DNA of 64,000 nt from Antedon mediterranea. Its lineage: Eukaryota; Animalia; Echinodermata. Both the position numbers and the translations under genes were made by a program. The stretch covers positions 2,051,788 to 2,115,787 of the forward strand of contig NC_092676.1 of assembly GCF_964355755.1 (NCBI RefSeq). Reading direction: 5' to 3'. Below, one piece after another: positions 1,378 through 48,163 of the stretch. Position 1 is the stretch's first letter; each line of letters opens with the position of its first letter. Below the pieces are notes generated by a model. It made no database searches. It had not been told where the DNA came from and worked only from the letters and a program-made list of their open reading frames with translations.

Positions 1378-4300
1378 TCGTTCTACCACCAGAACTATGG
1401 AGCGAGTAAGCCTTGAACCCTTGCCGATGGTATGGCTACTGTACGTAATCAGGTTCCACTGTCTTAACCGCTCAGTCACATATATAAAGATTGAATATCA
1501 TAGGCGGATTTGAGGTGTTTGAGGGATGGGAGATGATATTTCAAAAAAATCCTGGGTCTGCCACCGGTGGTTTAATACTACAAATCCAGCCTAGTAATAT
1601 GGAGGTCATGGGTTCAAGTCTACTATTTACATATCTTATTTTTCTTTAGATCACCAATGAAATTGTAAGACAAGTGATGGAGAACAGAGGGTTTTACAAC
1701 TTAGAGAAGCCTGGTGATTTTACCAACATTGTAGACATCCAGTATATCGCTGCTATGATCCAACCTGGTGGAGGACGTAACGACATCCCTCAGCGTCTTA
1801 AACGACAGTTTAACGTCTTCAATTCCACGCTGCCTTCCAATCAGTCCATTGATAAGATCTTCTCGACTGTAGGGACAGGTCATTATTGTAAGGTGAGATG
1901 TTTTATTTATTTATTCTTTTTACTGGGTGACCTCTTCAGTAAAAAAGCTGTTCGCCCAGTACACAAAACAGTAAAATTACAAAAGAAAAAACAGACCAGA
2001 TTACAGTTTTTAACTTAAAACAGCACATTGATATTTTTTTAATTTTAATCCATGCTAGTATAAAACAAAGCAAAACAAGGAAAAAAGCTTTTACAAATAA
2101 AGGTCCCTTAAAAAAGAGATATTAATGTTTTGTATATCCAAAGGCAAATTACTGAAAAAATATTAAAATATTTTTTAATATATAGTACAGAATATTGTAT
2201 TATTATGGTTACAACCTCTAAGTTTGAGACAAAAATATTTTATTACAATCTGTATAAAATAGTAATTTAACTACTTTTATATTATAGTATTTTATTATAA
2301 TATTTATGCTAATTTCAATTTTTTGTAGGAGAGAGAATTCTCTGATGAAGTCATTGACCTTGCCGCTATGCTAGTCTCTTGTACCAGACATCTATGGCAG
2401 AGTGTTAAAGTAAAGATGTTACCAACTCCAGCAAAATTCCATTACATTTTTAATTTGAGAGATCTTTCCAGAATCTGGCAGGTATGTACATTTTTAATTG
2501 AAAACCCCTAATATTATAATGAAACAATCCATATAAATTCAAAAATTAATTAATAATTTACTCATTTTGACTGTAACATTTTCTGTATAGGGTATGTTGA
2601 ACACCAACAGTGAGGTTGTGTGTAACCAGTCAGTGTTACTAGCATTATGGAAGCATGAATGCAACAGGGTTATTGCTGATAGGTTCACCAACCAAGAAGA
2701 TAAGAATTGGTTTGAAGCACAAATCAAAAAGGTATGTAAATAGATACTTGGGACAGCGACCTCGGTTTGAGAAGTTATTGTTCCCAGAGTTATTTCATCC
2801 CTTTAGGATGACAAACATAGAAAAGTATTTTTAATTTGTTTTGTGATTTTGCTTCAAATTATGTGAAATTGTTGTTCTTTGATATCAAAACTAATTTTGA
2901 TTAACACAAAACTAACCACAATACAAAAAAGCAATCCTTGTCTCCAGACAACCTGCTTTATTTAATTGACAAGATAATTCATAATCGTTTGTGTTATTTT
3001 TAGTAATGAAGTAAGTTAGTATTATAGGTTTGGTTTCGGTTTTACAAACCTAAACTGATTTTTTAAATATGCTATTCACTAAAGTGTAACAATCTTTTTA
3101 TTGCATCATGAGGACATTTTCATGATGACACCATGTGAACCTTGTTTACAGGATTTTAATGAAATTTTAAAAGAAATTATAGCCCTGCATTTATTCTAAT
3201 ACATTTATTTATTTATGTTTTTGCTCATGAAAAGTTAAAAATATATTTTGGTCAGTATTGTAGTATCAATCAGCTGTCATAGTCATTTTGTCTCTCTGTT
3301 TTTTCTTCTTCTTGTATATTGTACCTCTTGTTTTTAATCACAGTTTCATATCTAGCATAGGAATGTTCTGTTTGTTCTGCTGCATGATCATCAATTGAAC
3401 AGTAAATCTCATTTTTTTCAATAGTGTCACCGACACTAATGGTTTCAATGTTATTTTGATAGTGCACAACAGGTACAGGTGTGTTGTGATGTTTTCTCTT
3501 TTGTTGATCATAACAACACACAACAAACACAAGTAAAACTATCAGTATGATGTTACTTGTTACCAGTATTATGGTTATTGTATTAGCTGTCATTCTTTCT
3601 GTTGGCATGTCATATTTGATATCTCGAGATGTTGTCAGTCTGTCTGTCGGCACAACATCATTACGAATAACTTGTGATGTTGTTAGTCTGTCTGTTAGCT
3701 TGGCATCTTCAATTGTGAATGTTATCTCATTAGATCTGCTCTGAACATCAGTACTCACCAGGCACTTCACAGTGTAGTTACCAGCTGGTAAATTACCAAA
3801 GCATCTTTCATCAGTTTCATTGTAATACTGATACCTAGCTTCCTCCCCATTCAAACTCCAATTATAAATTGTTCTGTCACCAGATCCACCTTCTGCAAAG
3901 CACTTAAAGCAATTCTGGTTCACATCATTATCAGGTGTTTCATATAACCTCTTAACCTCTAGCTTTAACTGAGGGTAAACCGTCAATATCAATGTGTAGC
4001 ACCCGATACCCACATATGTTCTGTTTTTAATAGAAATACAGTAGACAAATATTCCTTCTCCAGAATGAAAACCTTTTTAAAGTCAAAGTAATTTCAATGT
4101 CAGTATCTGCTTGATGAGACTGTGTGATGTGGTACTTTCCTTGGATCCAACCAATTATCACTGCATATTGGAGATTATCATATTTTCTGATGTCACATGA
4201 AATAGATACTTCTTCTCCTTCAATCATGTCTTTCATATTGTCACAATGAAGTTTTACATACCGTGGTTGGCGTCTGCTCGGTGTAACATCTGATGAAGGA

Positions 4301-7300
4301 ACTAAATATTGTAAACTATAATCATCTTGACATGTTCGTATTCCTGTTTGTTGACCAAAAGAAATTAAGCATACGCAGTTCAAATTTAAATCTTTTCCCA
4401 ACAAATCAAGAGTTTCCTGTTTTTCATTTGATGATTTAATTGTCACAGATGACTTCATGTATGATTGGTAATACAACTTTCTGTCAAATTGTACCAACTG
4501 TCTTGAAACTCCATATCTGAATATCAACAAACAAGTCACCAACAAGTTGAAGAATTTCAAAGTCATCTTTAAAAACCTCTCTGTATTGTATATTCATTTC
4601 TTGCATTTTGTAACCTCTTGTTTTCAATCACAGTGTCAGAGCTAACATATACATTTTCAGCTTGTTCTGTTATGTTATCATCAACTGAACAGTAAATCTC
4701 ATTTTCTGTCATTATGTTTGAAACGTCAGTAGTTTTACCAATGCTAATGGTGTCATTATTACTTTGATAGTGTACAGCAGGTACAGATGTCTTCTGCAGT
4801 TTCCTCTTCTGTTGTTCATAACAACACACAACAAACACAAGTAACACTATCAGTATGACATTACTTGTTAACGATATTTTAGTTATCTTATTAGCTGTCA
4901 TGGTTTCTGTTGGATCGTCATATTTGATATCTCGAGATGTTGTCGGTCTATCTGTTGGCATGCCATCTTTAATTGTGAATTCTATCTCATCAGATCTGTT
5001 CTGAACATCAGTACTCACCAGACACTTAACAGTGTAGTTACCAGCTGGTAGATTACCAAAGCATCTTTTATCAGTTTCATTGTAATACTGATACTTGAAT
5101 TCCTCTCCATTCAAACTCCAATTATAAATTGTTCTGTCACCAGATCTACCTTCTGCATAGCACTTGAAGCAATTCTGGTTCACATCAACTTCAGGTGTCT
5201 CACATAGCTTCATAACATCTACCTTTAATTGAGGGTGAACCAGCAATTCCAATGTGTAGCACTCAATACTCACATATGAACCTTGGTTATTTGAAAAACA
5301 GTAGAAAAATATTCCTTCTCCGGAATGAAATCCTTTTACAGTCTGATTAATGGTTGTAGTGTTGTCAGTATCTAGAAGATGAAATTGTGTGATATGGTGC
5401 TGTCTTTGGATCCAGCCAATTGTGATATCATATTGGATGTTGTCATATTTCCTGATATCACATGACATGTTTACTTCCTCTCCTTCAGTTATGTCTTTCA
5501 TATCTTTGTCACAGTAAAGTTTTACATACAGTGGTTGATGTGGGCTCCATGTGACCTCTGATGAAGGTACCACATAGTGTGAATTATAATCATCTTGGCA
5601 TGTGTATATTCCTTTTTCTTGACCAAAAGAAATAAAAAGTTGGCATTTAACTATTAAATCTTTTCCCGGCAATACAACTGTTTTTTGTTCATTTGATGGA
5701 ATAATTGTCACAGGTTGTGGCTTAGTAGACCAGTAATAAAAACCTCTTTCAAATTGTACCAACTCTCTTGAAGCTCCATGTCTGAATATTAATAAACAGA
5801 TCACCAACAGGTTACAGAATTTCAAAGTCATCTTTAAAACCTCTCAGTATTGTTTGTGAAAATATACCATTCTAGTTCCCGATGTGGCCAGCGATAAGAC
5901 TGAATTGATGTTTGTATTTTTATAGGTTTATAATATTGTAATATTTAGTATTTTGAGTTTTGGTTTTTGTTGCTACTGTAATCTCGAAACTAATTTTGTG
6001 AAGAATAATATTTACATGAGCTAACATAGTCATTCTGTCTCTCTGTTCTCATTTCCTGCATTTTGTAACCTCTTGTTTTCAATCACAGTGTCACAGCTAA
6101 CATAGTCAGTCTGTTCTGTTGACTCTCTGTTCTCATTTCTTGCATTTTGTAACCTTTTGTTTTCAATCACAGTGTCAAAGGTAACATAAGAGTCCCAAGT
6201 TTATTCTTTTGTATGATCATCAATTGAACAGTAAAGCTCATTCTTTTCAACCGTTTTTGAAACATTCAAAGTGCCACCAACACTAATTGTGTCATTATTA
6301 CTTTGATAGTGCACAACAGGTACAGGTGTGTTGTGATGTTTCCTCTTTTGTTGTTCATAACAACACACAACACACACAAGTAAAACTATCAGTATGATGT
6401 TACTTGTTGCCAGTATTAGGATTATTGTATTAGCTGTCATGGTTTCTGTTGTCAAGACACATTTGATATCTTGAGATGTTGTCATTCTGTCTCTTGTCAT
6501 GACATCTTCAATTGTGAATGTTATCTCATCAGATCTGTTCTGAACATCAGTACTCACCAGACATTTAACAGTGTAGTTACCAGCTGGTAAATTACTAAAG
6601 CATCTTTCATCGGGTTCATTGTAATTCTTGAATTCCTCTCCATTCAAATTCCAATTATAAATTCTCTTGTCACCAGAGCCACCGTCTGCATAATAACACT
6701 TGAAGCAGTTCTGGTTCACATCAACTTTACATGTTTCATATAACCTTTTAACCTCTACCTTTAATTGAGGGTGAACCAGCAATATCAGTGTGTAGCACCA
6801 AACTGCTTTATAATTAAGTGAAATACAGTAGAAAAATATTCCTTCTCCGGAATGAAATCCTTTTACAGTCTGATTAATTGTTGTAATGTTGTCAGTATCT
6901 AGAAGATGAAATTGTGTGATGTAGTTTTTTCCTTGGATCCAACCAATTGTGATGTCATATTGAATTTGGTCATATTTCCTGATGTCACATGAAATGTTTA
7001 CTTCCTCTCCTTCAATGATGTCTTTCATGTTGTCACAGTAAAGTTTTACATAGAATGATTGACTTCTGCTCTGTGTAACATTTGAGGAAAGAACCAAGTA
7101 TTGTAAATTATCATCATCTTGACATGTGTATATTCCATTTTGTTGATCAAAAGAAATAAAAAGTGGGCATTTAACTATGAAATCTTTTCCTGGAAATACA
7201 AGCGTGTTCTGTTTACTTGATGGTGTAATTGTCACAGGTTGTAGCTTAGTGTGTGATTGGTAATCAAAACCTCTGTCAAATTGTACCAACTCTCTTGAAG

Positions 7301-10300
7301 ATCCATGTCTGAATATCAACAAGCAAGTCATCACCAACAGATTAAAGAATTTTAAAGTCATCTTTAGCATCCTCTCTGTATTTTTTGTGAAAATCCAATC
7401 TCTGAGACTGAAGTGATGTTTGTAGTTGTATAGGTTTATAATACATGGAAACACAAAAGGAAATACAGTATTTAGTATCTGAGTTTTGTTTTTGTTGCTG
7501 CTGTAATATCGAAACTAATTTTGTGAAGAATAATATTTACATGAGCTAACACAGTCAGTCTGTCTCTCTGTTCTAATTTCTTGCATTTTGTAACCTTTTG
7601 TTTTCAATCACAATGTCAAAGGTGACATAGGAGTGCTATGTTTATTCTGCTGTATGATTGCATTTATTTGTTTGAAAAAAACATTTAAGACTTCTAAAAA
7701 GTCAATGATGCTCTATATCTCGCAAGCCAGAAGTCAGTTGAATAGTAAATCTCATTCTTTTCAATATCAATGTGTAGCACCCAATACCCACATATGTTCT
7801 GTTTTTAATAGAAATACAGTAGACAAATATTCCTTCTCCAGAATGAAAACCTTTTAAAGTCAAAGTAATTTCAATGTCAGTATCTGCTTGATGAGACTGT
7901 GTAATGTTTTACTTTCCTTGGATCCAACCAATTGTCACTGCATATTGATGATGTCATATTTTCTGATGTCACATGAAATATTTACTTCCTCTCCTGTAAT
8001 GATGTCTTTCCTAATATTGTTACAGTAAAGGTACTGTGACTGGCGTGTGCTCATTGTAACATCTTGTGTAGAAACCAAATATTATATCATCTTGACATGT
8101 GTGTATTCTTGTTTGTTGACCAAAAGAAATTAAGCATAAGCATTTCAAATTAAATCTTTTCCCACCAAATCACAAGTTTCCTCTTTTTCATTTGATAAAA
8201 TAAAGTGTCACTGATAGTGATAGTGTAAGATTGATAATAAAACTTTCTTTCAAATTGTACTGTCGTAAAGCTTTGAATATCAACAAGCAGATCACCAACA
8301 GGTTAAAGACCTCTCTGTATTGTTTGTGAAAATTCATCCTCTGTTTGTATTTGTATATGTTTATAATATTTAAAATAAACAAAAGAAAATAATTAGTATT
8401 TGAGTTTTGGTTTTTGTTGCTAATAGGCATATATCAAAACTAATTTTGCGAAAGTAAGTAGGTAATATTTATTGCTTTTTGCTTGCTTTCTTTTCTATTT
8501 CTTGCATTTTGTAACCTTTTGTTTCAAATCACAGTGTCAAAGGTAACATAGGAGTCCCATGTTTATTCATCTGTATGATCATCAATTGAACAGTAAACCT
8601 CATGTTCTGCATTAATTTGCTGAACATCAGAAGTGTTACCAACACTAATTGTGTCAATGTTACTTTGATAGTGCACAACTGGTACAGGTGTGTTGTGATG
8701 TTTCCTCTTTTGTTGTTCATAACAACACACAACAAACACAAGTAAAACTATCAGTATGATGTTACTTGTTACTATTATGGTTATCTTATTGGCCTTCTTT
8801 GTAGCTGTTGTCATGTCATCTTTAATTGTAAATGCTATCTCATCAGATCTGTTTTGAACATCAGTACTCACCAGACACTTCACAGTGTATTCACCAGCTG
8901 TTAAATTACCAAAGCACCTTTCAACAGTTTCATAGAAACGATACTGGAATTCCTCTCCTCTCAAACTCCAATTAAAAATCTTTTTACCAGATCCACCTTC
9001 TGCATAACACTTGAAGCAATTCTGGTTCACATCAACTTCATATACCCTTGTGATCTTTACCATTAATTGTGGGTGAACCGCCATAACCAATTGATAGCAA
9101 TACAGTAGAAAAACATCCCTTGTCCAGAATGAAAACATTTAAGAGTCTGAATAATTGTAATGTCAGTATCCGTATGATGAGTCTGTATAATGTTGTGATT
9201 TCCTTGAACCCAAATAGTTGTCACTTCATATTGGATGTTGTCATCTTTTCTGATCAAGTCACATGAAATGTGTACTTCCTCGCCTTCAACGATGTCCCTC
9301 ATACCGTCACAATAGAGGTTTACAAGTTCTGGTTGAGATGTGGTATATGTCACACCCGGCAATGTATAAATAGTATGTTGAAAATTATCATCAAATTGAC
9401 ATAAGTATAGTCCGTGATTAGAACCAAACAATGAAAAGTGGACATTTAACTGTTTCATATTTTCCTGAACGATTAACACTCTTTCGTTTCATTACTGGTG
9501 TGATTGCAATGTTTACCTTACTTGTTGATGAGTACTGAAATTTGTAACTAAATTTTACCAAACTTCTTGAAGCTCCTCCATGTCTGAATATCAACAAGCA
9601 AGTCATCACCAACAGATTAACAATTTTTAAAGTCATCTTTAAAACCTCTCTGTATTGTTTGTGAAAACACACCCTTCTAGTTCCAGATGTGGCCAGCAAT
9701 AAGACTGAATTGATGTTTCTATTTTTATAGGTTTATAATATTGTAATATTTAGTATTTTGAGTTTTGGTTTTTGTTGCTACTGTAATATCGAAACTAATT
9801 TTGTGAAGAATAATATCTACATGAGCTAACATGGTCATTCTGTCTCTCTGTTCTCATTTCTTGCATTTTGTAACCTTTTGTTTCCAATCACAGTGTCAAA
9901 GGTGACATAAGAGTGCTATGTTTATTCTGCTGTATGATTATCAATTGAACAGTAAAGCTCATTCTTTTCAACAGTTTGCAAAGCATTCAAAGTGTCACCA
10001 ACATTAATTGTATCATTATTACTTTGATAGTGCACAACAGGTACAGGTGTGTTGTGATGTTTCCTCTTTTGTTGTTCATAACAACACACAACAAACATGA
10101 GTAAAACTATCAGTATCATGTTACTTGTTACCAGTATTATAGTTATTGTATTAACTGTCATGGTTTCTGTTGTTGTGTAATGTTTTCCTTGGATTCAACC
10201 AATTGCGATGTCATATTGGATGTTGTCATTTTTCCTGATGTCACATGACATGTTTACTTCCTCTCCTTCAATCATGTCTTTCATATTGTCACAGTAAAGT

Positions 10301-13300
10301 TTTACATACCGTGGTTGATGTGGGCTCCATGTAACATCTGATGAAGGTACCACATAGTGTGAATTATCATCATCGTGGCATGTGTATATTCCTTTTTCTT
10401 GAACAAAAGAAATAAAAAGTTGGCATTTGACTTTGAAATCTTTTAATGGCATTACAAGCGTTTTCTGTTTATTTGATGGTGTAATTGTCACAGGTTGTAG
10501 CTTAGTGTATGATTGGTAATAAAAACCTCGGTCAAATTGTACCAACTGTCATGAAGCTCCATGTCTGAATATCAACAAGCAAGTCACCACCAACAGGTTA
10601 AAGAATTTCAAAGTCATCTTTAGAAACCTCTCTGTATTGTTTGTGAAAATCCAAATCCTCAGTTCCTGATGTGGCCAGAGACTAAAGTGATGTTTGTATT
10701 TGTATAGTTTTATAATATAGTAACACAAAAAATAATATTTAGTATTTGTGTTTTGTTTTTGTTGCTACTGTAATATCGAAACTAATTTTGTGAAGAATAA
10801 TATTTACATGAGCTAACATAGTCAGTCTGTCTCTCTTTTTTTCATTGCATTTTGTAACATTTTGTTTCCAATCACAGTGTCAAGGGTAACATAGGAGTGC
10901 CATGTTTATTCTGCTGTATGATCATCAATTGAACAGTAAATCTCATTTTTTTCAATGGTTTGCAAAACATTCAAAGTGTCACCAACACTAATTGTGTCAT
11001 TGTTTCTTTGATAGTGCACAACAGGTACAGGTGTGTTGTGATGTTTCCTCTTTTGTTGTTCATGACAACACACAATAAACACAAGTAAAACTATCAGTAT
11101 GATGTTACTTGTTACTAGTATTATGATTATTGTATTAGCTGTCATGATTTCTGTTGTCAAGACACATTTGATATCTTGAGATGTTGTCATTCTGTCTCTT
11201 GTCATAACATCTTCAATTGTGAATGTTATCTCATCAGATCTGTTCTGAACATCAGTACTCACCAGACACTTAACAGTGTAGTTACCAGCTGGTAAATTAC
11301 TAAAGCATCTTTCATCGGGTTCATTGTAATTCTTGAATTCCTCTCCATTCAAATTCCAATTATAAATTCTCTTGTCACCAGAGCCACCGTCTGCATAATA
11401 ACACTTGAAGCAGTTCTGGTTCACATCAACTTTACATGTTTCATATAACCTTTTAACCTCTACCTTTAATTGAGGGTGAACCAGCAATATCAGTGTGTAG
11501 CACCAAACTGCTTTATAATTAAGTGAAATACAGTAGAAAAATATTCCTTCTCCGCCGGAATGAAATCCTTTTACAGTCTGATTAATTGTTGTAGTGTTGT
11601 CAGTATCTAGAAGATGAAATTGTGTGATGTAGTTTTTTCCTTGGATCCAACCAATTGTGATGTCATATTGAATTTGGTCATATTTCCTGATGTCACATGA
11701 AATGTTTACTTCCTCTCCTTCAATGATGTCTTTCATGTTGTCACAGTAAAGTTTTACATACAGTGGTTGATGTGGGCTCCATGTGACCTCTGATGAAGGT
11801 ACCACATAGTGTGAATTATAATCATCTTGGCATGTGTATATTCCTTTTTCTTGACCAAAAGAAATAAAAAGTGGGCATTTAACTATGAAATCTTTTCCTG
11901 GAAATACAAGCGTGTTCTGTTTACTTGATGGTGTAATTGTCACAGGTTGTAGCTTAGTGTGTGATTGGTAATCAAAACCTCTGTCAAATTGTACCAACTC
12001 TCTTGAAGATCCATGTCTGAATATCAACAAGCAAGTCATCACCAACAGATTAAAGAATTTTAAAGTCATCTTTAGCATCCTCTCTGTATTTTTTGTGAAA
12101 ATCCAATCTCTGAGACTGAAGTGATTTTTGTATTTGTATAGGTTTATAATACATGGAAACACAAAAGGAAATACAGTATTTAGTATCTGAGTTTTGTTTT
12201 TGTTGCTGCTGTAATATCGAAACTAATTTTGTGAAGAATAATATTTACATGAGCTAACACAGTCAGTCTGTCTCTCTGTTCTAATTTCTTGCATTTTGTA
12301 ACCTTTTGTTTTCAATCACAATGTCAAAGGTGACATAGGAGTGCTATGTTTATTCTGCTGTATGATTGCATTTATTTGTTTGAAAAAAACATTTAAGACT
12401 TCTAAAAAGTCAATGATGCTCTATATCTCGCAAGCCAGAAGTCAGTTGAATAGTAAATCTCATTCTTTTCAATATCAATGTGTAGCACCCAATACCCACA
12501 TATGTTCTGTTTTTAATAGAAATACAGTAGACAAATATTCCTTCTCCAGAATGAAAACCTTTTAAAGTCAAAGTAATTTCAATGTCAGTATCTGCTTGAT
12601 GAGACTGTGTAATGTTTTACTTTCCTTGGATCCAACCAATTGTCACTGCATATTGATGATGTCATATTTTCTGATGTCACATGAAATATTTACTTCCTCT
12701 CCTGTAATGATGTCTTTCCTAATATTGTTACAGTAAAGGTACTGTGACTGGCGTGTGCTCATTGTAACATCTTGTGTAGAAACCAAATATTATTATCATC
12801 TTGACATGTGTGTATTCTTGTTTGTTGACCAAAAGAAATTAAGCATAAGCATTTCAAATTAAATCTTTTCCCAACAAATCACAAGTTTCCTCTTTTTTAT
12901 TTGATAAAGTAAAGTGTCACTGATAGTGATAGTGTAAGATTGATAATAAAACTTTCTTTCAAATTGTACTGTCGTAAAGATTTGAATATCAACAAGCAGA
13001 TCACCAACAGGTTAAAGACCTCTCTGTATTGTTTGTGAAAATTCATCCTCTGTTTGTATTTGTATATGTTTATAATATTTAAAATAAACAAAAGAAAATA
13101 ATTAGTATTTGAGTTTTGGTTTTTGTTGCTAATAGGCATATCAAAACTAATTTTGCGAAAGTAAGTAGGTAATATTTATTGCTTTTTGCTTGCTTTCTTT
13201 TCTATTTCTTGCATTTTGTAACCTTTTGTTTCAAATCACAGTGTCAAAGGTAACATAGGAGTCCCATGTTTATTCATCTGTATGATCATCAATTGAACAG

Positions 13301-16300
13301 TAAACCTCATGTTCTGCATTAATTTGCTGAACATCAGAAGTGTCACCAACACTAATTGTGTCAATGTTACTTTGATAGTGCACAACTGGTACAGGTGTGT
13401 TGTGATGTTTCCTCTTTTGTTGTTCATAATAACACACAACAAACACAAGTAAAACTATCAGTATGATGTTACTTGTTACTATTATGGTTATCTTATTGGC
13501 CTTCTTTGTAGCTGTTGTCATGTCATCTTTAATTGTAAATGCTATCTCATCAGATCTGTTCTGAACATCAGTACTCACCAGACACTTGACAGTGTATTCA
13601 CCAGCTGTTAAATTACCAAAGTTTCATAGAAACGATACTGGAATTCCTCTCCTCTCAAACTCCAATTAAAAATCTTTTTACCAGATCCACCTTCTGCAAA
13701 CACTTGAAGCAATTCTGGTTCACATCAACTTCATATACCCTTGTGATCTTTACCATTAATTGTGGGTGAACCGCCATAACCAATTGATAGCAATACAGTA
13801 GAAAAACATCCCTTGTCCAGAATGAAAACATTTAAGAGTCTGAATAATTGTAATGTCAGTATCCGTATGATGAGTCTGTATAATGTTGTGATTTCCTTGA
13901 ACCCAAATAGTTGTCACTTCATATTGGATGTTGTCATCTTTTCTGATCAAGTCACATGAAATGTGTACTTCCTCGCCTTCAACGATGTCTCTCATACCGT
14001 CACAATAGAGTTTTACAAGTTCTGGTTGAGATTTGGTCCATGTTACACCTGATTTATAAATAGTATATTGAGTTTTATCATCAAATTGACATTAGTATAT
14101 TCCTTGATTAGAACCAAACGAAATGAAAAGTGGACATTTAACTGTTTCATATTTTCCGTAACAAATAACACTCTGTTGTTTACTTGATGGTGTGATTGCA
14201 ATGTTTACCTTACTTGTTAATGAGTACTAAAACTTTAAATCAAATATTACCAAACTTCTTGAAGCTCCTCCATGTCCGAATATCAACAAGCATGTCATCA
14301 CCAACAGATTAACAATTTTTGAAGTCATCTTTAAAAACCTTTCTGTATTGTTTGTGAAAATCCACCTTTCTAGTTCCTGATGTGGCCAGAGACTGAAGTG
14401 ATGTTTGTATTTCTATAGGTTTATAATATGAAATAAACACAAAAGAAAATAATTAGTATTTGAGTTTTGGTTTTTGTTGCTAATGGGCTATTTTGTGAAA
14501 TTAAGTAGGTAATATTTATGGCTTTTCAAGAAATGTACAATTTATAAAATAGCATAATATTTGAATGAAAGTAAAAGGATTGAATAATATACACATTTAA
14601 CATTGAGAAATTAAACATGGAAAGCAGGGGATAATAAGAAAGAACAATATTTAAATCAGTAAGTGTCTATAAAAACTCCAATAAAGTACAAGTTTAAACT
14701 GTAATCTATTGTTCTTAAAGGTTGCAGAGGCAGACCTTGGCACAGCATTAGCAGAGCAAATCCCTGCTGAACCGTTCTTTGTTGACTTTCTACGAGATGC
14801 TCCTGAAATAACAGGTTAACTTTTTTGTTAAAATTGTTTGTTTATGCCAAATCTATTTCATGGTGTTGCCATCGCTATATTTATATATTAACATAGATTA
14901 ATAGTAGTTTACTAACTAACATTTTTCATGGCTTTTTACATATAAATGTTGTATACTTTTTTTTAGATTGTTTTGAAAATTATCATCTATCTGTAATGAA
15001 ATAAACTCATGCAGGATTTGGACCCACAATTGTGTAACTTACTTATATCTTGGTATCTTTGGTTTTGACAAGAAAAATACAAAATTTCTGCATTGTTTAC
15101 AATAAAAATTACAATAAAAATGCAATATTCAAATATTAAAATTACATCAAAAATTTAAAATGTATGTATAAAAAAAACAATCGATTTCACGATAAAATTA
15201 CAATATAATATAAAAATGACATCAAAAAGTTCAATTTAAATATTAAAAAAACCTTCGTTGAGAGACGTAAAATATCTAAGTATATAAAGTGACATCAAAA
15301 GAGTAACGATAAAAATATTTAAACAAAGTATCATTGATCATAGACAGTTTTGGTTATTTAGTAATCTGGTTTTACAAACGTATATTTACTAAAAATGTTA
15401 CTTATTATATTTTGTAGGTGATGAACCCGATGATGCTGACCTAGATGCACCTAAGATATATGAACCAATAGAATCCTATCAACAACTAAACGACAGGCTG
15501 ATAGGGTTCATGGCTCAGTACAATGAAACAGTGAGAGGGGGCAAGATGGATTTGGTCTTCTTTAAGGTAATACATATGAGAGTTATCAACCTGTAGCCGT
15601 ATTCACCAATCACACTTAAGTGAGATATATTAAGTGTTTATATATATAATATTAAGTATTTCACTTGAACTCAATAAATACTTAAGTATTTCTCTTAAAT
15701 TGTATTCACTTTACGTAGAAGATTTTTTTTCTTAGCTTAAGTATGAATGGTGAATTCAGCCAATGAGTTGTACTAGAAATTACTAAAGGTTACAGCTTAT
15801 TTAATAACAGTATGTTAGTAGAGTACACAGTACAGTATACCTGTGAAACGAGGGGCAATATGTGTTTTAAAAACCCCTTTCCTGCAATTTTGGACGTTTT
15901 TTGGAAAATAATACATATATATCACTTTAAAAACATTAAACCATGTCATTCCTTGTCTTAAATGTACGTTTTATGGTAAATTATGATAAAAAGTGAGAAA
16001 CAATGCACTACCTAAGTAGCTCGCGGCGATCGACCTCTCGTGGACGGTCTTAGGCCTAGCCTAGCTAGGCTTAGTTTTGTAGGCCTAGCTGGTAAACATC
16101 GATAACGTACGAACATCGTACGCTAGCTATATACCTAGCCTGACGTTGTATAGTTGCTGCATTAATTGTCTTTCTATTTTTGCCAGACTCCGTTGATACA
16201 AATTGGGGAAAACCCGGTATTTTCGCTGAAAAGTTAGGAGTCTTCCATTTGTTTTGGCTTCACGATCGATCGAAAAGTGGGCGAATTACAGGTGAAAAAC

Positions 16301-19300
16301 AAAAATATCAATCCGCGCGCAATGCATTTTGGGATTTACAGCGGGCCGCTATAAATATTAGAATCGATTTATTTTTCACATTTTTAACCGTTTAAAGACG
16401 AAAAAAGTTATCGCAATAGGACAATATAGTATTATTTTTACATTAAATATAGTTTGTGATCTTAAATTAGATCTAAAAAACGTAGGGAATGGGGCTTTAA
16501 TGTGACACTTATGCTGGATTCCTAAAGCCTGTTTTCCTGTCGACGTTATTCACGTTGATCGTTAACAGTTCAACGACGATCGTTTGAAAACGATCAAGTT
16601 GAAATGATAACGATAGCGTGTACTTTTTCCTGTAAATCGTTAACATTTCAATGTTTTTTTATGTAGAAGATCGCCGATTATTGTTAACCATGGCGTCAAC
16701 TAACGTCGACAGGAAAACAGTCTTAAGGTGTCCTCTTATAGTGACTCTACTGTTTTTTTTAAATCGATAAGAAAATATGTTCAAGTTTATTATTTATTTT
16801 ATTTGCTATAAACTATACCATGGGTTAATTTGTTTTAGGTAATTAGGTAATACAGTATTAGGGTAACAATAATGGTTCACTTGGTTGTAGTAGGTGGTAA
16901 TGGTACACAGGTAATACCTCCCTGGTTACCAGTACCTGTAAACATTGGTTATGGTTTGGTGGTGGTATATGGTATTGGGTGCTTGTTGTGGCAGTGGTGC
17001 TAATATCAAATACATATTATACATTTATATTTTCACTAGGATGCTATGGTGCATTTAGTTAAGATATCTAGAATAATCCGTACGCCACGTGGTAATGCTC
17101 TGCTAGTTGGTGTTGGTGGTTCTGGTAAGCAGAGCCTAACAAGATTAGCCTCATTCATTGCTGGATACAAGAGCTTTCAAATAACACTGACAAGGTTTGT
17201 CTTTTAATTATTGTATTTAAACTGGAATAAATTCAGTTCCAAATGTTTTACTCCCCTTATCTTATATCTTATTTTGCAATACATTTTAACAATACAAACT
17301 TACGGTACTAATTTGTCTGACAACAATGATAGGGACTAAGATTCAATTCAATTCAATCAACTTTATTGTCAAACTCATGAATGGCTTGAAACTTTGGCTG
17401 AAACACACATTAAAAGATGGACCAATACACCAGGGTACCTCAACATATGCACTGGTTTCTTTGTGCGCACAAGCCAGATATGTACACTGGACCTCCAGTT
17501 TTAAGTCCTTTCAAGAAGACTTATTCTACCACCAGAACTATGAGGAGGGACTTGAACCGGTGCTATGGCTCGGCTATTCAACCCCACAAACTTATTCAAG
17601 TTTACTTGACTTACCAAGTTTCCATATTTTGAAATAAAAAAATATGTCTCCAAGGTGAATTAATATATGGAAATAAAAATATATTGTTTTTTTTTAATTT
17701 TTACTCTCATTTTCTTAGATCGTATAATGTTGCCAACTTGATGGATGATCTAAAGCATCTTTATCGTACGGCAGGTCAACAAGGTCAAGGAATAACGTTC
17801 ATCTTTACCGATAATGAGATTAAAGATGAAGGATTCTTGGAGTATATGAACAACGTACTAGCATCAGGAGAAGTAAATAAACAAAACTGAAATTTTGTCC
17901 ACCAAACATTTAGCTTTAAAAACTTCCTTATTTTGTCTAATTATTGGTATTTATTGTTTTTAATAAATAATACTTATTGTCATCTTTCTTTTCATAATTA
18001 ATTTCTTCTTATTTCAGGTTTCAAATTTATTTGCCCGTGATGAAATAGATGAGATCACAGGTGAGCTGATACCAGTTATGAAGAAAGAGTTTCCAAGACG
18101 ACCGCCGACCAATGAGAATCTTTACGAGTATTTCTTGAGCAGAGTCCGCGCCAACCTACATGTGGTTTTGTGCTTCTCACCTGTAAGTCAATCTCTGGAT
18201 GTTTTGCTTTGTTAAAATCTTGAAGCTGATAAGGTTATCACTATGATTTCCACAAATTAATAGAACTGTAGCTAGATGGTTAACATGCTTGCCTTCCAAT
18301 CCCAAGGTCCAGGGTTCAATCCTGACCTAGTGCTTTTTTTAAAAATGGTAGTTCTAGAGTGTTGACATGATTTGAACCGAGGACCCAAGAATTCTTGTTA
18401 ACGACTAAGCTACAGCGCCACTATTATAGATTTATGCTCAGGGTTGACAGTCACATCAATATCAGTATACGAAAGCCACAATTATTATCATGATGAATAA
18501 AGAAAAACAAATTATTTTTTATTTTATTTTCTTATCATGTCAGGTTGGTGAAAAGTTCCGTAGCCGCTCGTTAAAGTTTCCCGGTCTGATCTCCGGCTGT
18601 ACAATGGATTGGTTCAGCCGATGGCCAAAAGACGCCCTTATAGCAGTGTCGCAACATTTCCTGTCAAGTTTTGAGATTGTTTGCACAGATACTGTCAAAC
18701 AGAGTGTTGTTAACACTATGGGTGTCTTCCAGGTAATGTAAAACAAATTTTCAGTACACCAATGCTGTGTCTACACTATCAAACTAGTTTGACAAAAAAA
18801 TGTGATATGCCCAAATTTGGTAGTGATATGGCCAAATATGGTGGTGATATGACATCATCATGTCCATATATGGACACATCACATTTTTTTGTCAAATAAA
18901 GTTGGATAGTGTAGACAGAGCTTTAGACCATTTTCAGCTACAATCAATCAATCAATCGTAATTTCATTTTTCAATTTAGGACATGGTTGCGGAATCTTGC
19001 ATCGATTATTTTCAGCGTTTCCGGCGACAGATGCATGTCACTCCAAAGTCGTACTTATCGTTTATCGACAGCTTCACTCAGGTGTATGCTGAGAAGCTCA
19101 AAGCTATTGGTATCCTTGCTAATAGGATGCAAACTGGTAAGCATTATTTTTAAATTGCTTAATTTAAACTTGCGGTTATAGGAAAAACTTTCCAACACAC
19201 AAGAAATGTTTAAAAGCTATGGCCAACACCTTTAGGGGTTCTAAACCAGAATTATATGTATGTATGTACGAGTAAGAGATATTAAACTAGATCATCTGTA

Positions 19301-22300
19301 TGTATGTACGAGTAAGAGATATTAAACTAGATCGTCTGTATGTATGTATGAGTAAGAGATATTAAACTAGATCATCTGTATGTATGTATGAGTAAGAGAT
19401 ATTAAACTAGATCATCTGTATGTATGTACGAGTAAGAGATATTAAACTAGATCATCTGTATGTATGTATGAGTAAGAGATATTAAACTAGATCATCTGTA
19501 TGTATGTATGAGTAAGAGATATTAAACTAGATCATCTGTATGTATGTATGAGTAAGAGATATTAAACTAGATCATCTGTATGTATGTATGAGTAAGAGAT
19601 ATTAAACTAGATCGTCTGTATGTATGTACGAGTAAGAGATATTAAACTAGATCATCTGTATGTATGTATGAGTAAGAGATATTAAACTAGATCATCTGTA
19701 TGTATGTACGAGTAAGAGATATTAAACTAGATCATCTGTATGTATGTATGAGTAAGAGATATTAAACTAGATCATCTGTATGTATGTATGAGTAGGAGAT
19801 ATTAAACTAGATCATCTGTATGTATGTACAAGTAAGAGATATTAAACTAGATCATCTGTATGTATGTATGAGTAAGAGATATTAAACTAGATCATCTGTA
19901 TGTATGTACGAGTAAGAGATATTAAACTAGATCATCTGTATGTATGTACAAGTAAGAGATATTAAACTAGATCGTCTGTATGTATGTATGAGTAAGAGAT
20001 ATTAAACTAGATCGTCTGTATGTATGTATGAGTAAGAGATATTAAACTAGATCATCTGTATGTATGTATGAGTAAGAGATATTAAACTAGATCATCTGTA
20101 TGTATGTATGAGTAAGAGATATTAAACTAGATCGTCTGTATGTATGTACAAGTAAGAGATATTAAACTAGATCGTCTGTATGTATGTACGAGTAAGAGAT
20201 ATTAAACTAGATCATCTGTATGTATGTATGAGTAAGAGATATTAAACTAGATCATCTGTATGTATGTATGAGTAAGAGATATTAAACTAGATCATCTGTA
20301 TGTATGTATGAGTAAGAGATATTAAACTAGATCGTCTGTATGTATGTATGAGTAAGAGATATTAAACTAGATCGTCTGTATGTATGTACAAGTAAGAGAT
20401 ATTAAACTAGATCATCTGTATGTATGTACAAGTAAGAGATATTAAACTAGATCATCTGTATGTATGTACAAGTAAGAGATATTAAACTAGATCATCTGTA
20501 TGTATGTATGAGTAAGAGATATTAAACTAGATCGTCTGTATGTATGTACAAGTAAGAGATATTAAACTAGATCATCTGTATGTATGTATGAGTAAGAGAT
20601 ATTAAACTAGATCGTCTGTATGTATGTACAAGTAAGAGATATTAAACTAGATCATCTGTATGTATGTACAAGTAAGAGATATTAAACTAGATCATCTGTA
20701 TGTATGTATGAGTAAGAGATATTAAACTCGATCATCTGTATGTATGTATGAGTAAGAGATATTAAACTAGATCGTCTGTATGTATGTACAAGTAAGAGAT
20801 ATTAAACTAAATCGTCTGTATGTATGTACAAGTAAGAGATATTAAACTAGATCATCTGTATGTATGTATGAGTAAGAGATATTAAACTAGATCATCTGTA
20901 TGTATGTACGAGTAAGAGATATTAAACTAGATCATCTGTATGTATGTACAAGTAAGAGATATTAAACTAGATCATCTGTATGTATGTATGAGTAAGAGAT
21001 ATTAAACTAGATCATCTGTATGTATGTACGAGTAAGAGATATTAAACTAGATCATCTGTATGTATGTATGAGTAAGAGATATTAAACAAGATCATCTGTA
21101 TGTATGTACGAGTAAGAGATATTAAACTAGATCATCTGTATGTATGTACGAGTAAGAGATATTAAACTAGATCGTCTGTATGTTGTATGTATGTTATTCT
21201 TGGTCCTCAAGTCTAACTGAAAACTAAGGAAATTTAGATTGAGCTCTCCACAGACACGGCAGCCAGCAGTACTGTAACAGCGCCTACCAGATGAGCACAC
21301 CAGGAGACGATCCCCTACTTTTTCGAATAGTGTACCAAGTTCTTGTTCAGTACAGTTTCGTTCCTCCCACTAATGCCAGTCGCATCCAAGAGGTAGTCTT
21401 CTCTAGCATCTAAATTTATGCTGGGTCCTACTGTTGAAAGCCTTCCTTGACTGGGTTAGCTTCTTTAGCTTGACTAGGATCGCACTGAAGGAGATTGCTT
21501 AATTAATGTTGTCTTTTTTTAGGTCTTGCTAAATTAGTGGAAGCTACAAGTTCTGTAAATGAACTGAGCAAAGAACTGGCTGTGAAAGAGAAAGAACTGG
21601 CAGTGGCATCCAAGAAGGCAGATGCTGTATTGGCAGAGGTCACTGTTAGTGCTCAGGCCGCTGAAAAGGTCAAGGCACAAGTCCAAAAAGTCAAAGATAA
21701 AGCCCAGGCTATTGTAGATGAGATTGAGGTGAATACACAATTCAATTTTTGTCAATAAAACTTTTGATACTTTTTTGAAATTCTGTCTATAATGTTTAAA
21801 TTTTTAAAAACATGGGAATTTTTTTTAAATTGAGAATTTTACAATTTTGTTTAGGCTGACAAAGCTATAGCTACCGAGAAGCTAGAAGCAGCTAAGCCAG
21901 CATTAAAAGAAGCCGATGCAGCCCTCAACACCATCAAGCCAACCCACATCTCAACAGTGCGTAAGTTAGCTAAGCCACCTCATCTCATCATGAGGATTAT
22001 GGACTGTGTGCTGTTACTGTTCCAGCATAAGATGGACTCGCCTTCGTTAGACCCAGAGAAGCCTTGCATGAAGCCATGCTGGGGGGAATCATTGAAACTT
22101 ATGGGAGGCAGCAACTTCTTGCAAGGACTTCTCTCTTTTCCAAAGGTAACAATTCAATTTAATTCTTTATTAATACATAAAAAAAAATATGATAAAATTA
22201 ACTTCAAGAAGGTAAACAACAAAACAAACAACATCAAAACTTTCAAAAACAATTATTTCTCCTGTTAACATAATTATTAACCGGCAAAATCATGCACTGC

Positions 22301-25300
22301 CATAAGAAAATTTAATTAATCAAAATAAAAAAATAGTTCCCTCTATAACAATGCTATACAAATCATAACGCAAATCTGAATAAAATGAGCATTTGAGTAC
22401 AAAATTAAATTCATCTTCATACCTAGTTAATCATAACGTGATTATGTCTTTCAATTCTCTATGATAATTATAAAAAGTTATATGTAGCAAAATAAGGGTA
22501 ATGAAGAAAAATGTAATGATTTTTGTAATAGTTGCTTTTATGTTGTTTTATGTAATAAGATGTACATAGGGAATTCCTTCATATTTTAATTCTTTATTGC
22601 ATTGTAAGTGAAGATCGAGAATAATGAACTTAAAATCCCTCTTGCTGTGTTATTGTTCCTACACACATTATTTAAATGACATATTCACTTAATTATTTTG
22701 TTGTTCATCCATTTTAGGATAGTATTAATGAAGAAACGGTAGAACTATTACAGCCATATATGGACATGGAAGATTACAACATGGAGGCTGCTAAGAAGTC
22801 ATGTGGTGATGTAGCTGGTCTCTGTTCCTGGACTAAGGCCATGTCTTTCTTCTACGGGATTAATAAACAAGTGCTGCCGTTAAAAGTAAGTTTATATATC
22901 ATTATTATAGTTCCCTTTTTATGATGGTGTGAGTATGTCAAATGTACGGTACTGTGTGTATTTACATGTGCAAAGAAAACAGAAAGTGTGGAACATACAA
23001 AAATCCATGTTAAAACATGCAATAATATGCAACTAAACAGACTAAGCACCCCCCCCCCCCCCTACCTCCACTCCCTGCCTCGTTTATGTTTATTCATGTT
23101 GTTATGAAATATATTTTGCCTTTCCTAACTTTGATCAGAGTTTTATATTATCATTATATTTTCGTTATTTATGTAAACTTCTGTCTTTGTAGGCAAATCT
23201 CATTCTACAAGAAGCACGTCTTGATAAAGCAATGGAAACATTACGAGAGGCTCAGAGTCAACTAGATGAGAAACAGAAGGAATTAGATGTGGTACAGGCC
23301 ATGTATGATAGTGCCATCGCAGAAAAACAGGTAAGAATATGACGTTTCATAGACTTTTTATTTGTAATGTTACATTTCTTAAAAGTTACAAGCACCAACA
23401 AAGTTTTTTTAGTAGAAGAATTAATTGCACTTTCAAGAATTATAATATGTAAGCTCCTCACCATTATTTGATGAAGAACTTGGCAAAAAAAATGATACCT
23501 ATTATACAGCAGTCTCTGAAAGCTTCAAACACATTGTTGGCTAATACTATTATTTTGATTTGATTTCTAGGCACTGTTGGATGATGCTGAGAGTTGCCGT
23601 AGAAAGATGAACAATGCTACAGCTCTCATAGAAGGTCTTGGAGGTGAAAAGGTTCGTTGGACAGAGGCTAGCAAATCATTTGAAGAGCAAATCAACAGGT
23701 AAACAACAACAATCCTATCTATTCTTGATTCATAGAAAATATATCTTTCCAGATAGCATCCCTGAGGAGGAGAGAACCTTTTATCATTTTGGCAATCTAG
23801 TTATCAGTGGTTTTTCTGTTCATACTGTACTGTTGTCTCCTTAACCTCTGTCTACACTATCAAACTAGTTTGACAAAAAAAGTGTGATATGCCCACATTT
23901 GGTAATGATATGACATCATCATGTTCATATATAGGCATTTGGTAATGATATGACATCATCATGTCCATATATAGGCACATCACATTTTTTTGTCACATAA
24001 AGTTTGATAGTGTAGACAGAACGTAAGAATGTAAACATTTTTTATATTTTATTCCAGACTTGTAGGAGATGTCCTTCTAGCTACTGGGTTCTTGTCCTAT
24101 TCTGGACCGTTCAATCAGGAATTCCGAGAATTGCTTATCAAGAATTGGAAGAGAGAGATGAATGTCAATAAAATTCCATACAGTGATGTAAGTAGTGGCA
24201 CTGCAGCTTAATGGTTAACATGCTTGCCTACAAATCCCAAAGTCCTTGGTTCAAGTTTTTTTTCCATGGTCAAAACATTTCCACTACCTTAAACCCTGTC
24301 TACACTATGAAACAAGTTTGATATGCCCAAATATAGTAGTGATATGCCCAAATATGGTAGTGATATGCCCAAATATGGTAGTGATATGACATCATCATGT
24401 CTATATATGGGCACATCACTTTTTTTTATTTTAACATGTTGCTTTATTCATATGTGTTTATTTCAGGACTTGAACATCAGTGGCATGTTGACTGATTCAG
24501 CTACAATTGGTGAATGGAATTTGCAAGGCTTACCAAACGACGAGCTGTCAATCCAAAATGGCATCATCGTAACCAAGGGAACACGATTCCCGTTGCTCAT
24601 AGATCCGCAAGGTCAAGGCAAGACTTGGATTCGCAATCGTGAAAGCGATAATCAGTTACAGGTCACGACGTTGAATCATAAATACTTTAGGACTCATCTT
24701 GAAGATAGTTTGTCTTTAGGGCGCCCTCTGTTGATTGAGGATGTTGGCGAAGAGTTAGATCCTGCTTTGGATAATGTACTTGAGAAAAACTTTATCAAAT
24801 CTGGAAGTACATACAAGGTTGGTTTGTTTAAATAATTTATTCGATAATTATTGTTTGAAACATCAAAAAACTCAACAGTTCTTTTCAGAACTATACATGG
24901 TGTACCGCAAACTTTATATCAACTTATCCAATAATTTTAATGATTCAAAATGACCTTGTACTCTTTTAAAAAAACAAACACTGTAGAAGTTGTGTTTGCT
25001 GTAAACACAATTTGTTTCCCTTAGCTACTTAAAATCTAAGTTAAGCTTTATTTATATATCATGGAGGCTAGACCAACACTGGGGTGTTCCTCTGTTGACT
25101 ATGCATGAAAATGTACGTACAAGATACAAGAAACTTTATTTGTCTTCGTAAAAAACAGCAAAAGAAAAGTCAGCAAATCCGATTAAAAGATACATATATA
25201 AAACGGACTAAAAAGGACAAAAAGACATTCCTCAAAGTAGCTTACTGCTTTATATCAATAATGTATCTCAACAAATATTACAAAAACAGCCACTTTTCAT

Positions 25301-28300
25301 TCTGTGTATTCCTACATTTCTATGTTACTATTGTAGGTGAAAGTTGGAGACAAAGAAATAGATGTGATGAATGGATTCTGTCTGTATATAACAACGAAGC
25401 TGGCCAATCCTGCATACACGCCAGAGGTCAGTGCCAGAACGTCCATCATTGACTTCACGGTCACCATCAAAGGACTTGAAGACCAGTTGCTAGGAATCGT
25501 CATCTTGACGGAGAAGAATGAACTGGAAGCTGAAAGAGTCAAACTTATGGAAGAGGTTGGTGAACATTTGTAATTTCGTTTCTAAAGCTCCGTCTGCACT
25601 AGCAAACTTTATGTGAAAAAAATGTTATGTGCCCATATATGGACATGATGATGTCATATCACTACCATATTTGGGTATATCACACTTTTTTTGTTAAACT
25701 AGTTTGATAGTGTAGACAGAGCTTTACAGAGTGAAGTATTAAGGGCGTGTTCAGACTTATTTACCTGTGTAAATTAGTAATCTACCCACCAAAGTTAACT
25801 ATAAGTGTTCCATAAATCAGCTTAGCGGGTAAGTAAATAAGCCTGAACAAACCCGTGGAATGTCAGTTAAATGTGTTTATAAACTTTTTCACAAAAAAAT
25901 AGTTTTATTTATTGATTCTTCTTGCTTTGCACAGGTCACAGCAAACAAGCGCAAGATGCAGGAACTAGAAGATAACCTTCTGTACAGACTAACAAGTACA
26001 GAGGGCTCACTAGTAGAAGATGAGTCACTGATTGAGGTGCTGAAAGTCACTAAAGAAACGGCTGAAGACGTTAGTGAGAAACTGACGATTGCTGCTGAGA
26101 CAGAGATACGTATAAACACAGCAAGAGAGGAGTTCAGACCGGTTGCTACTAGAGGAAGTATCCTGTACTTCTTGATAGTGGAAATGAGTATGGTGAACGT
26201 TATGTACCAGACGTCTCTTAAACAGTTCCTTGGGATCTTTGACTTATCCATGGCAAAGTAAGTTTATTTGTCTCTCATAAATCCCTTTCACATTGCCAGC
26301 AGCAAAACTTGGTGTGTACTCTAGGGCTTGGCAATGTGAAACGGGTTATTTGTAGATTTAAAAGACTTTGAAATGGCTTGTTTTTTACATTGTTCCATTC
26401 AAGGTAGAAACAGATCTCCTATATCACATATGCACAATCAAGTTTTTAAATACTCTTTTAAAACCAGTGAGAAAAGTTTAGCTCTTTCTTGAAGTGTTGT
26501 GTATATATCTTGACCTCAAATGTTTTTTTACATTAAATCTCACCTTTTATTCACAGATCTACAAAAAGCCCCATAACAGGTAAGCGTATCAACAACATAA
26601 TTGAATACCTGACATATGAATCGTTCCAGTACACAGCCAGAGGGTTGTATGAAAACCACAAGTTCCTATTTACACTCCTGCTTGCGCTCAAGATTGACCT
26701 GCAAGGAAAGAAGATCAAACACGAGGAATTTCAAACACTTATCAAAGGTAAGATTCTGTTGTTCCAATGGACTTAAAGTGAATTACTATTACTACTGTGT
26801 AGCTATTCTATGCAAAATGTACTACCAAACCCAAGTGTAAGCCCACTCCGAGATATAAGTCCATCTCCTGAATTTTGAGACATTTGTATGGAAAATTATC
26901 TTTCATATTGTGGTTGTTGCATATAATGCCACCAAAGAAGAGGCTGGGCTTATCTGAAATCAATACAGTTAAAAATGTTTTATTAATAATTGTCCATTCC
27001 ACTGTAAATGAAATGAAGTTAAATGTTGATGTTTACTCTTGTGACTATAGGTGGCGCTGCTCTAGATTTAAATGCAGTGGAACAAAAGCCCAAGAAATGG
27101 ATCTCAGACATGACCTGGTTGAACCTGGTCCAGTTGAGCAAACTTCCGCAGTTCTCACAGATCCTAGGTCAGATAGGTCGCAACGACAAAGGCTGGAAAG
27201 GTTGGTTTGATGAAGATGCACCAGAAGAGGCTGTGATTCCAGATGGATATTCTGCTTCTCTTGATGTCTTTCGTAAGCTTCTGTTGGTGAGGTCGTGGTG
27301 TCCGGATCGTACCATTCCGCAGGCTAGGCATTATATTGCAGGTTCTATTGGTGTTAAGGTAAGTCTTGCTTGCTGTAGTATGGTGGTATGGTATGGTGCC
27401 CAAACATGGTAGTGATATGCCCAAACATGGTAGTGATATGCCCAAACATGGTAGTGATATGCCCAAACATGGTAGTGATATGCCCAAACATGGTAGTGAT
27501 ATGCCCAAACATGGTAGTGATATGCCCAAACATGGTAGTGATATGCCCAAACATGGTAGTGATATGCCCAAACATGGTAGTGATATGCCCAAACATGGTA
27601 GTGATATGCCCAAACATGGTAGTGATATGCCCAAACATGGTAGTGATATGTCCATTAAAGGGCACATCACATTTTTTTGTCACATAAAGTTTGATAGTGT
27701 AGACAAGGCTTTAGAAGTGTTTTGTCTTAAAAATAAATTTTATGCAACAATTGTTTTTTTGTAGTTTGCAGAGGGTGTTATTCTGAATATGGAAGAAATG
27801 CAGAATGAAAGTACAAAGCGTGTTCCATTGATCTGTTTCCTGTCAATGGGATCTGATCCTACTGAGAACATTGAGAGACTAGCCAAGAAAATGGGAATCA
27901 GTAAGTTTAAATGATATCATTCAATGTAATAAGTTATATAAAGCTCTGTCCACACTATCAAACTAGTTTGTAGACAGAGCTTTATTCATTCATACATTAA
28001 TGTATATCTCTTTTATTGTTCAATTGTATATTGATTACAGGATGCTCTGCCATCAGCATGGGACAGGGACAGGAAGTGCACGCGAGACGACTCATTTCAG
28101 GATGCATGCAAGATGGAGGATGGGCACTCCTCCAAAATTGCCATCTTGGTTTAGATTTCATGGATGAATTACTTGAAACAGTAAGTTCACAGTACAATAT
28201 AAATGTATTATCTAACAAATATAAACATGGCAAGCTATTTTGCATGCAGGTGTAATTTATACCGTACATGATTAAGTATAATCCCATGCTCAAGTATTTA

Positions 28301-34639: not shown

Positions 34640-48163
<13,524 letters not shown>

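Follow-up and report, generated by a model that had tools for sequence, protein, structure and literature searches.

Vertebrate paired receptors (LILR, Siglec, CEACAM, FcR-like) carry related Ig ectodomains on different tails. Among invertebrates, the Alr genes of Hydractinia encode clustered single-pass receptors with one to three unusual Ig-like domains, and the family is marked by many pseudogenes, domain-level mosaicism and a divergent domain 1, as described in the part of the preprint that we draw on (bioRxiv 10.1101/2022.03.04.482883). In echinoderms, the sea urchin Sp185/333 genes form a tandem family shaped by segmental duplication and, as has been proposed, gene conversion, and they vary between individuals (PMC5103432, in excerpts). 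As for stop codons that belong to a poly(A) hexamer, they have been reported in the protists Giardia, Spironucleus and Naegleria. This dual use is genome-wide, with 7-18% of Giardia genes (WGURAA) and ~11-13% in N. gruberi (AAUAAA), and it goes along with short mapped 3' UTRs (PMC11529991, in excerpts).

The locus described here is an array of nine units in the window, i.e. the whole 64,000-nucleotide stretch of Antedon mediterranea DNA that was analysed. The units (U1-U9, all on the minus strand) were delimited by their common leader and then aligned. As in the dual-use stops of protists, the stop codon overlaps a canonical poly(A) hexamer, and it does so in seven of the nine units. The initial annotation proposed that one substitution had created both elements, that the new terminator could have enabled tight tandem amplification and that short- and long-tailed copies might now form two signalling classes. 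The reading that we favour, with a probability of about 60%, is that a Gln codon of the tail repeat was once, long ago, turned into a stop, that this nonsense mutation was spread by recombination and that the hexamer is a by-product.

The array lies within another gene, an axonemal dynein heavy-chain gene whose exons run on the plus strand from ~260 to 31,340 and whose later exons encode Pfam AAA_9 and Dynein_C.

2732..14720, plus strand: intron of the axonemal dynein heavy-chain gene, containing the entire nine-unit array in antisense orientation

The units are candidate nested genes, all lying within this single 12-kb intron. The flanking exons (2591-2731 and 14721-14813) are phase-0 with GT/AG ends, and their order across 2732-14720 is taken from translated frames rather than from an RNA joint; one spliced dynein contig (record 9) is found in run X5, labelled 'RNA?'. 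The G+C content of the window is 27-40% in 2-kb blocks. Tandem Repeats Finder detected no tandem repeats between 2305 and 15097. Elsewhere, dynein introns harbour a very high-copy interspersed repeat, possibly a SINE (1188-1434, summed depth ~500,000 in X1), a 40-bp minisatellite (19242-21189, 48.7 copies, 96% matches), and one 21-bp tandem unit present in three introns (18802-18851, 24319-24388 and 27397-27654, with 2.4, 3.3 and 12.3 copies) that yields spurious repeat ORFs. Further along the plus strand is a Runx gene (35054-48163), whose Runt exon (35054-35569) shares 96% identity with Runx of Antedon mediterranea and 82% with that of Anneissia japonica, and whose last exon ends in VWRPY at 48163.

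The units and one of the spacers that separate them are as follows.

13270..14328, minus strand: U1, broken by a stop after 33 aa and by frameshifting deletions; hexamer at 13274-13269, second AATAAA at 13180
12350..13023, minus strand: U2, broken, with no ATG and with domain 3, TM segment and tail deleted; hexamer at 12354-12349
10906..12069, minus strand: U3, twin of U7 with an unbroken 387-aa ORF; hexamer at 10910-10905
9922..10617, minus strand: U4, broken by a stop after 22 aa and a 477-nt deletion; hexamer at 9926-9921
8563..9636, minus strand: U5, broken by a stop after 72 aa and by frameshifts; hexamer at 8567-8562, second AATAAA at 8473
7642..8314, minus strand: U6, broken, with no ATG, twin of U2; hexamer at 7646-7641
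6201..7361, minus strand: U7, unbroken ORF of 386 aa (389 from an upstream ATG at 7370); 51-aa tail with 2 Tyr
4569..5831, minus strand: U8, CAA type; unbroken 420-aa ORF, with 4 Tyr in its tail of 82 aa
3270..4566, minus strand: U9, CAA type, with a 1-nt insertion near 4078 and neither upstream spacer nor TATA-like element
5852..6018, minus strand: spacer 5' of U8, as an example of these ~170-200-nt segments, with the TATA-like ATTATAAA at 5934; putative promoter

Open frames are found in U3, U7 and U8 only, the six other units being broken, with first in-frame stops after 33 (U1), 3 (U2), 22 (U4), 72 (U5), 3 (U6) and 179 aa (U9). The insertion in U9 sits in an A run of the assembled sequence. 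The units look intronless, as their frames read through without introns. A homologous spacer is present upstream of U1-U8 and absent before U9, and its TATA-like ATTATAAA, a putative promoter element, lies 187-271 nt beyond each hexamer, in agreement with the ~200-270 bp initially given for the distance to the next promoter. Conserved ends in the spacers (TTACAG and AATACAG, e.g. at 10773-10765 and 10638-10632, minus strand) resemble splice acceptors. It is possible that each unit is an exon behind a leader, with either a 5' UTR intron or a common upstream leader exon. U8 has lost its 3' spacer, and its final codons derive from the leader of U9, with the stop 2 nt before the U9 ATG; its length is therefore partly accidental. 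The U8/U9 junction (4567-4590) is also found in a contig of X5, from a different sample (4306-4623, 4 differences), and it therefore occurs beyond the individual that was assembled.

With six units broken, and with young duplicates nested in long introns being common (PMC5174743, in excerpts), the array might be a silent, decaying nested cluster, in which stop and hexamer have become irrelevant and dN<dS testifies to past selection. Nevertheless, three units have kept frames of 386-420 codons open despite their A/T-rich DNA, and all indels between U3 and U7 comprise whole codons. The intact frames have been under purifying selection, as dN (0.125) is lower than dS (0.228) between U3 and U8 (Fisher p=0.0016); domain 1 shows no excess dN in this comparison. 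We regard a silent cluster as very improbable.

The stop itself and the sequence that follows it in U7 are located as follows.

6200..6205, minus strand: AATAAA of U7 containing the TAA stop (6203-6201)
6033..6200, minus strand: post-stop frame of U7, 56 open codons comprising two 28-codon modules

The minus-strand AATAAA with an in-register TAA starts at 13274, 12354, 10910, 9926, 8567, 7646 and 6205, and CAA is found at the same place in U8 (4664-4662) and U9 (3374-3372). The GAA TAA A of seven units and the GAA CAA of the two others had thus been placed correctly. The hexamer was also said to follow a YCSI/V motif, which is not so in U2 and U6, as domain 3, the TM segment and most of the tail are deleted there. 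The idea that one C>T change separates the two classes does not stand, as identity over the 61 nt that follow the stop is 90-95% among TAA copies (100% between duplicate twins) and 73-80% when these are compared with U8 and U9. In U8, the CAA is followed by G, and a C>T change would produce TAAG there and not AATAAA. Given the similarity of this post-stop cassette between non-twin units, the seven TAA copies are likely best counted as one event rather than as independent ones.

How surprising is the overlap? Of all possible nonsense substitutions, 3 of 182 in U7, 4 of 181 in U3 and 5 of 211 in U8 would create AATAAA (~2%), or 8, 10 and 11, respectively, if ATTAAA is counted too. The overlap is therefore not the default outcome. 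The window contains one AATAAA per 444-566 nt, and a ~2% coincidence noticed after the fact amid such frequent hexamers is weak evidence of design, though not none.

A contig from organism B (X7 record 21) spans the stop site, with flanks ~95-96% identical to the window and 7 differences, all outside the hexamer among the difference rows listed. As this contig apparently keeps the hexamer, the stop appears to be older than the split between organisms A and B. The TAA cassette is seemingly present in two organisms and common in the array, which selection could explain as well. At 10914, a loose end in X1 suggests that another copy of the family stops one codon earlier without AATAAA; this weak indication comes from two contigs with an agreement of 0.62.

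The direction of the change can be gauged from the tail modules. The initial annotation had rightly noticed that the frame of U7 stays open for ~56 codons past the stop, with two modules. They represent an 84-bp local duplication (6188-6095 versus 6104-6019, 86% identical), and within the array the second module occurs in U7 alone. This second module and the module of U8 both begin with T-E-Q, and an in-register E-Q is present in U9; E-Q-A-E-Q is encoded at loose contig ends that stem from other copies, both at 10881 in run X1 (organism A) and at 10894 in run X7 (organism B). With CAA-type tails found in both organisms, the tail was probably once longer, and the stop probably arose from a Gln codon, as had been proposed. 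Because the stop occupies the position of the Gln codon of each module, the change likely ran from CAA to TAA. A second stop is found within 15 codons in five of the seven TAA copies, as one would expect once translation of this stretch has ceased, and U3 loses the module frame after ~22 codons.

The tail also stands out in the read data. The summed depth of its module (10842-10897) is ~4x that of the upstream tail in X1 and X7, in short collapsed contigs. In both DNA runs the summed tail depth is many times that of unique flanks, depth not being equivalent to copy number. Possibly, the module is a repeat that has expanded at other loci. Depth and those loose ends in which a second module begins jointly hint at more loci and at variation in repeat number. 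A bolder interpretation would be that of crinoid-specific, intronless Ig-fold receptors with variable 28-residue tyrosine repeats, in which a portable 3' cassette, carried by recombination from one divergent ectodomain to another, silences all the repeats and ends the transcript by one base; we consider it a long shot.

Two further features illustrate how the array has been reshuffled.

14485-10811 versus 9783-6095, no strand assigned: block duplication of U1-U3 and U5-U7, 3,712 columns, 95.4%
11739..11872, minus strand: tract in domain 1 of U3, 134 nt identical to U8 5640-5507, with 24 consecutive informative sites shared with U8

Identity between non-twin units is 57-92% for the signal peptide and domain 1, 83-89% for domain 3 and 77-94% from the TM segment to the stop, U2 and U6 being left out of the latter two figures owing to their deletions. 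The 3' cassette, 90-95% identical, sits on ectodomains that are 57-99% alike. In the tree of domains 1-2, U8 (CAA) groups with U3, U4 and U7 (TAA), and U9 (CAA) with U2 and U6 (TAA), with bootstrap values of 100 each; tail type is therefore not inherited together with the ectodomain. The 134-nt tract shared by U3 and U8 likely results from gene conversion. On the whole, the pattern speaks for unequal crossover and gene conversion, and not for the amplification of one short-tailed founder. The exact contigs of X1 in or beside the array (2687-5944 and 10800-10929) have depths of 24-35, compared with the 46-48 reached by three contigs at 200-2381. Possibly, the other haplotype is very different or without the array, and the duplication of U1-U3 and U5-U7 might stem from merged haplotypes.

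In the reading that we favour, a CAA to TAA nonsense mutation would have hit the Gln codon that opens the cytoplasmic-tail repeat of a predicted Ig-fold receptor, and AATAAA would have arisen as a by-product of the A-rich codons on either side. Presumably, the downstream module, no longer translated, then decayed after the TAA, and the TAA cassette and the spacer were later spread through the array by unequal crossover and gene conversion. The short tail would retain the YCSI/V site. U3, U7 and U8 would encode type I membrane proteins, and any signalling by them would rely on this acidic site. Transcripts of the internal units, if they are made, would end at the stop hexamer or further downstream, at ATTAAA-type variants or at a cluster of AATAAA behind U9; those of U8 apparently must end at one of the latter two.

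3097..3213, minus strand: cluster of four AATAAA behind the U9 stop (3213, 3209, 3195 and 3102), within 170 nt

Could U3 and U7 nevertheless use the hexamer as their poly(A) signal, with 3' UTRs of ~10-30 nt as the result, whether or not it was selected for this? From the stop to the start of the next unit, no other exact AATAAA is present in U2, U3, U4, U6 and U7. The 3' flank of U9 is the only native-looking one in the array, and as the internal units have been copied without it, they have no obvious native 3' end, which is the need that the initial annotation had proposed. The dual-use stops of Giardia and Naegleria offer a precedent. An exact AATAAA can function without a strong downstream element. 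However, AATAAA is frequent in the window, U1 and U5 possess a second one 94 nt further on, and U8, intact and at the tightest junction, has neither a spacer nor any AATAAA before U9. Animal poly(A) sites have a U/GU-rich downstream element, and a link between UAA and AAUAAA has been discussed (PMC6413133, in excerpts). Here, the DNA downstream of the seven hexamers is A-rich, with short TG runs, and its T content 20-60 nt from the hexamer start, a crude measure, is 0.25-0.30, compared with a window median of 0.325; 69-85% of the 144 minus-strand hexamers of the window equal or exceed the seven in downstream T. Moreover, stops overlap AAUAAA in Trichomonas and Tritrichomonas too, yet with limited evidence of use (PMC11529991, in excerpts), so that overlap alone shows nothing.

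Of eight sequencing runs listed, four were compared with the window in one analysis and three in a second. Contigs 9, 12 and 13 of X5 extend past the hexamer by ~96, well over 30 and 48 letters, respectively, and none of the six loose ends listed in X5 is poly(A)-like. These pieces may be DNA or dynein pre-mRNA, because the X5/X1 depth ratio is alike (0.18-0.20) for the U9 3' contig, the U8/U9 junction, record 9, the module and the high-copy repeat. Altogether, a functional hexamer seems to us unlikely, though worth keeping in mind. If true, an animal gene family would provide a clear-cut case of a dual-use stop newly generated by one substitution.

The fuller scenario, in which the new terminator led to tight tandem amplification and to paired short- and long-tail signalling classes, can draw on the presence of the hexamer stop in most units and on two intact tail lengths side by side, a short one of 51 aa with 2 Tyr and a long one of 82 aa with 4 Tyr. 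U9 has a 79-aa tail with 6 Tyr, and the YCSI/V site is kept in all tails; it presumably resembles SH2-docking sites such as EPIYA. Several observations argue against this scenario. Five of the seven hexamer carriers are broken upstream, and the two intact ones, U3 and U7, are twins of the block duplication. The short class is thus made of these twins and the long class of a single gene, U8, the second long copy being broken. Using the ITIM consensus [ILVS]xYxx[IVL] of the Alr preprint (bioRxiv 10.1101/2022.03.04.482883, in excerpts), we found no ITIM, and no ITAM, ITSM or NPxY either, in any of five tails (U3, U7, U7 read through, U8 and U9), nor is there a charged residue (D/E/K/R) in the TM hydrophobic segments of U3, U7 and U8. 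By these defining features, the array therefore does not qualify as one of paired receptors, even though signalling might still be tuned by tail length. As for amplification, the tightest junction, with U8 and U9 2 nt apart, is devoid of a hexamer, most copies are dead, and tail type is independent of ectodomain lineage. We give the hexamer under one in ten as the enabler of amplification, and the complete scenario appears to us about as improbable as that of a silent cluster.

What kind of protein do the intact units encode? U3, U7 and U8 have a hydrophobic N-terminus (predicted signal peptide), three predicted beta-sandwich domains, one TM segment and a cytoplasmic tail, i.e. the predicted layout of a type I membrane receptor with a leader, a single TM segment and a tail. 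KD19 hydropathy peaks at 2.7-3.2 at residues 313-337, with an N-terminal maximum of 1.4-1.5, and the structural model of U8 has helices at residues 3-15 and 312-347. U8 also contains several N-glycosylation sequons. Its ectodomain is modelled as all-beta (mean pLDDT 59, ectodomain blocks mostly 60-84, from a 5-sequence alignment). Among the fold-search matches listed, domain 3 matches HLA-DM (Z 9.7, rmsd 2.5, 82 aligned residues), tied with FnIII- and PKD-type folds, and domains 2-3 match SYG-2 (Z 9.5, rmsd 5.8, 163 aligned residues). The model is therefore consistent with an Ig-like beta-sandwich fold for domains 2-3, with domain 1 barely covered. The Cys, Trp and Tyr-Cys pattern of domain 2 resembles the Ig consensus. 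Pfam matches of the array proteins all fall below the cut-off (Ig_3, E=0.26; Y_Y_Y, E=0.002-0.009).

The only full-scale homologues found are two uncharacterized proteins of Antedon mediterranea, XP_071957072.1 and XP_071950092.1, 65% and 37% identical to the U8 ectodomain, respectively. Unlike U8, the former is annotated without TM segment and tail, and the latter has an unrelated long tail; the region of the stop is seen in neither. An HMM search yielded 15 matches: these two proteins, one 133-aa fragment and 12 long proteins, the latter hit by repeated stretches over domain 3. Of these 12, nine were looked up, and the named ones are bacterial or archaeal. A bacterial origin of the family was rejected, as the HMM scores are additive on a generic fold. 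The 133-aa fragment (P0007), from a 658-nt ENA contig, matches the leader and domain 1 (E=4e-11) and is a distant relative. A search for short homologues with residues 260-420 of U8 returned eight candidates, none of them significant.

The stop/hexamer overlap is thus most likely an incidental feature of a birth-and-death gene array. Of more use is the array as such, a fast-shuffling family of Ig-like crinoid receptors that lacks annotation. The family is a candidate for a role in immunity or recognition, and it is compact enough for genotyping. Neither this family nor a poly(A) signal made by a nonsense mutation in a duplicated animal receptor is described in the open-licence literature searched.

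How, then, does the array compare with the systems described above? In protists, stop codons doing double duty as poly(A) signals have been described before. There, the phenomenon extends to whole genomes and to mapped transcripts (PMC11529991, in excerpts), whereas the array is known from DNA and likely reflects one mutation. Unlike vertebrate paired receptors, it lacks an inhibitory member with an ITIM as well as an activating one, be it with an ITAM or with a charged TM residue, and the resemblance of its predicted fold to CD22, NEGR1, CD58 and the like is no more than generic. The likeness to Sp185/333 lies in the tandem arrangement and in the modes of duplication, and homology searches revealed no sequence similarity. 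According to the part of PMC5103432 used here, Sp185/333 genes are flanked by short tandem repeats and include no pseudogenes, in contrast with an array that has no such repeats and is mostly broken. No sequence link to Hydractinia Alr emerged from homology searches either, and Alr genes have one exon per domain and many tails with ITAMs or ITIMs, while the array units look intronless and carry neither motif (bioRxiv 10.1101/2022.03.04.482883, in excerpts). The array nevertheless shares with Alr its clustered single-pass architecture, its load of pseudogenes, its mosaicism and its divergent domain 1. It is apparently an undescribed, mosaic family of crinoid Ig-like receptors, kin in kind to the diversified Ig-like clusters of other invertebrates.
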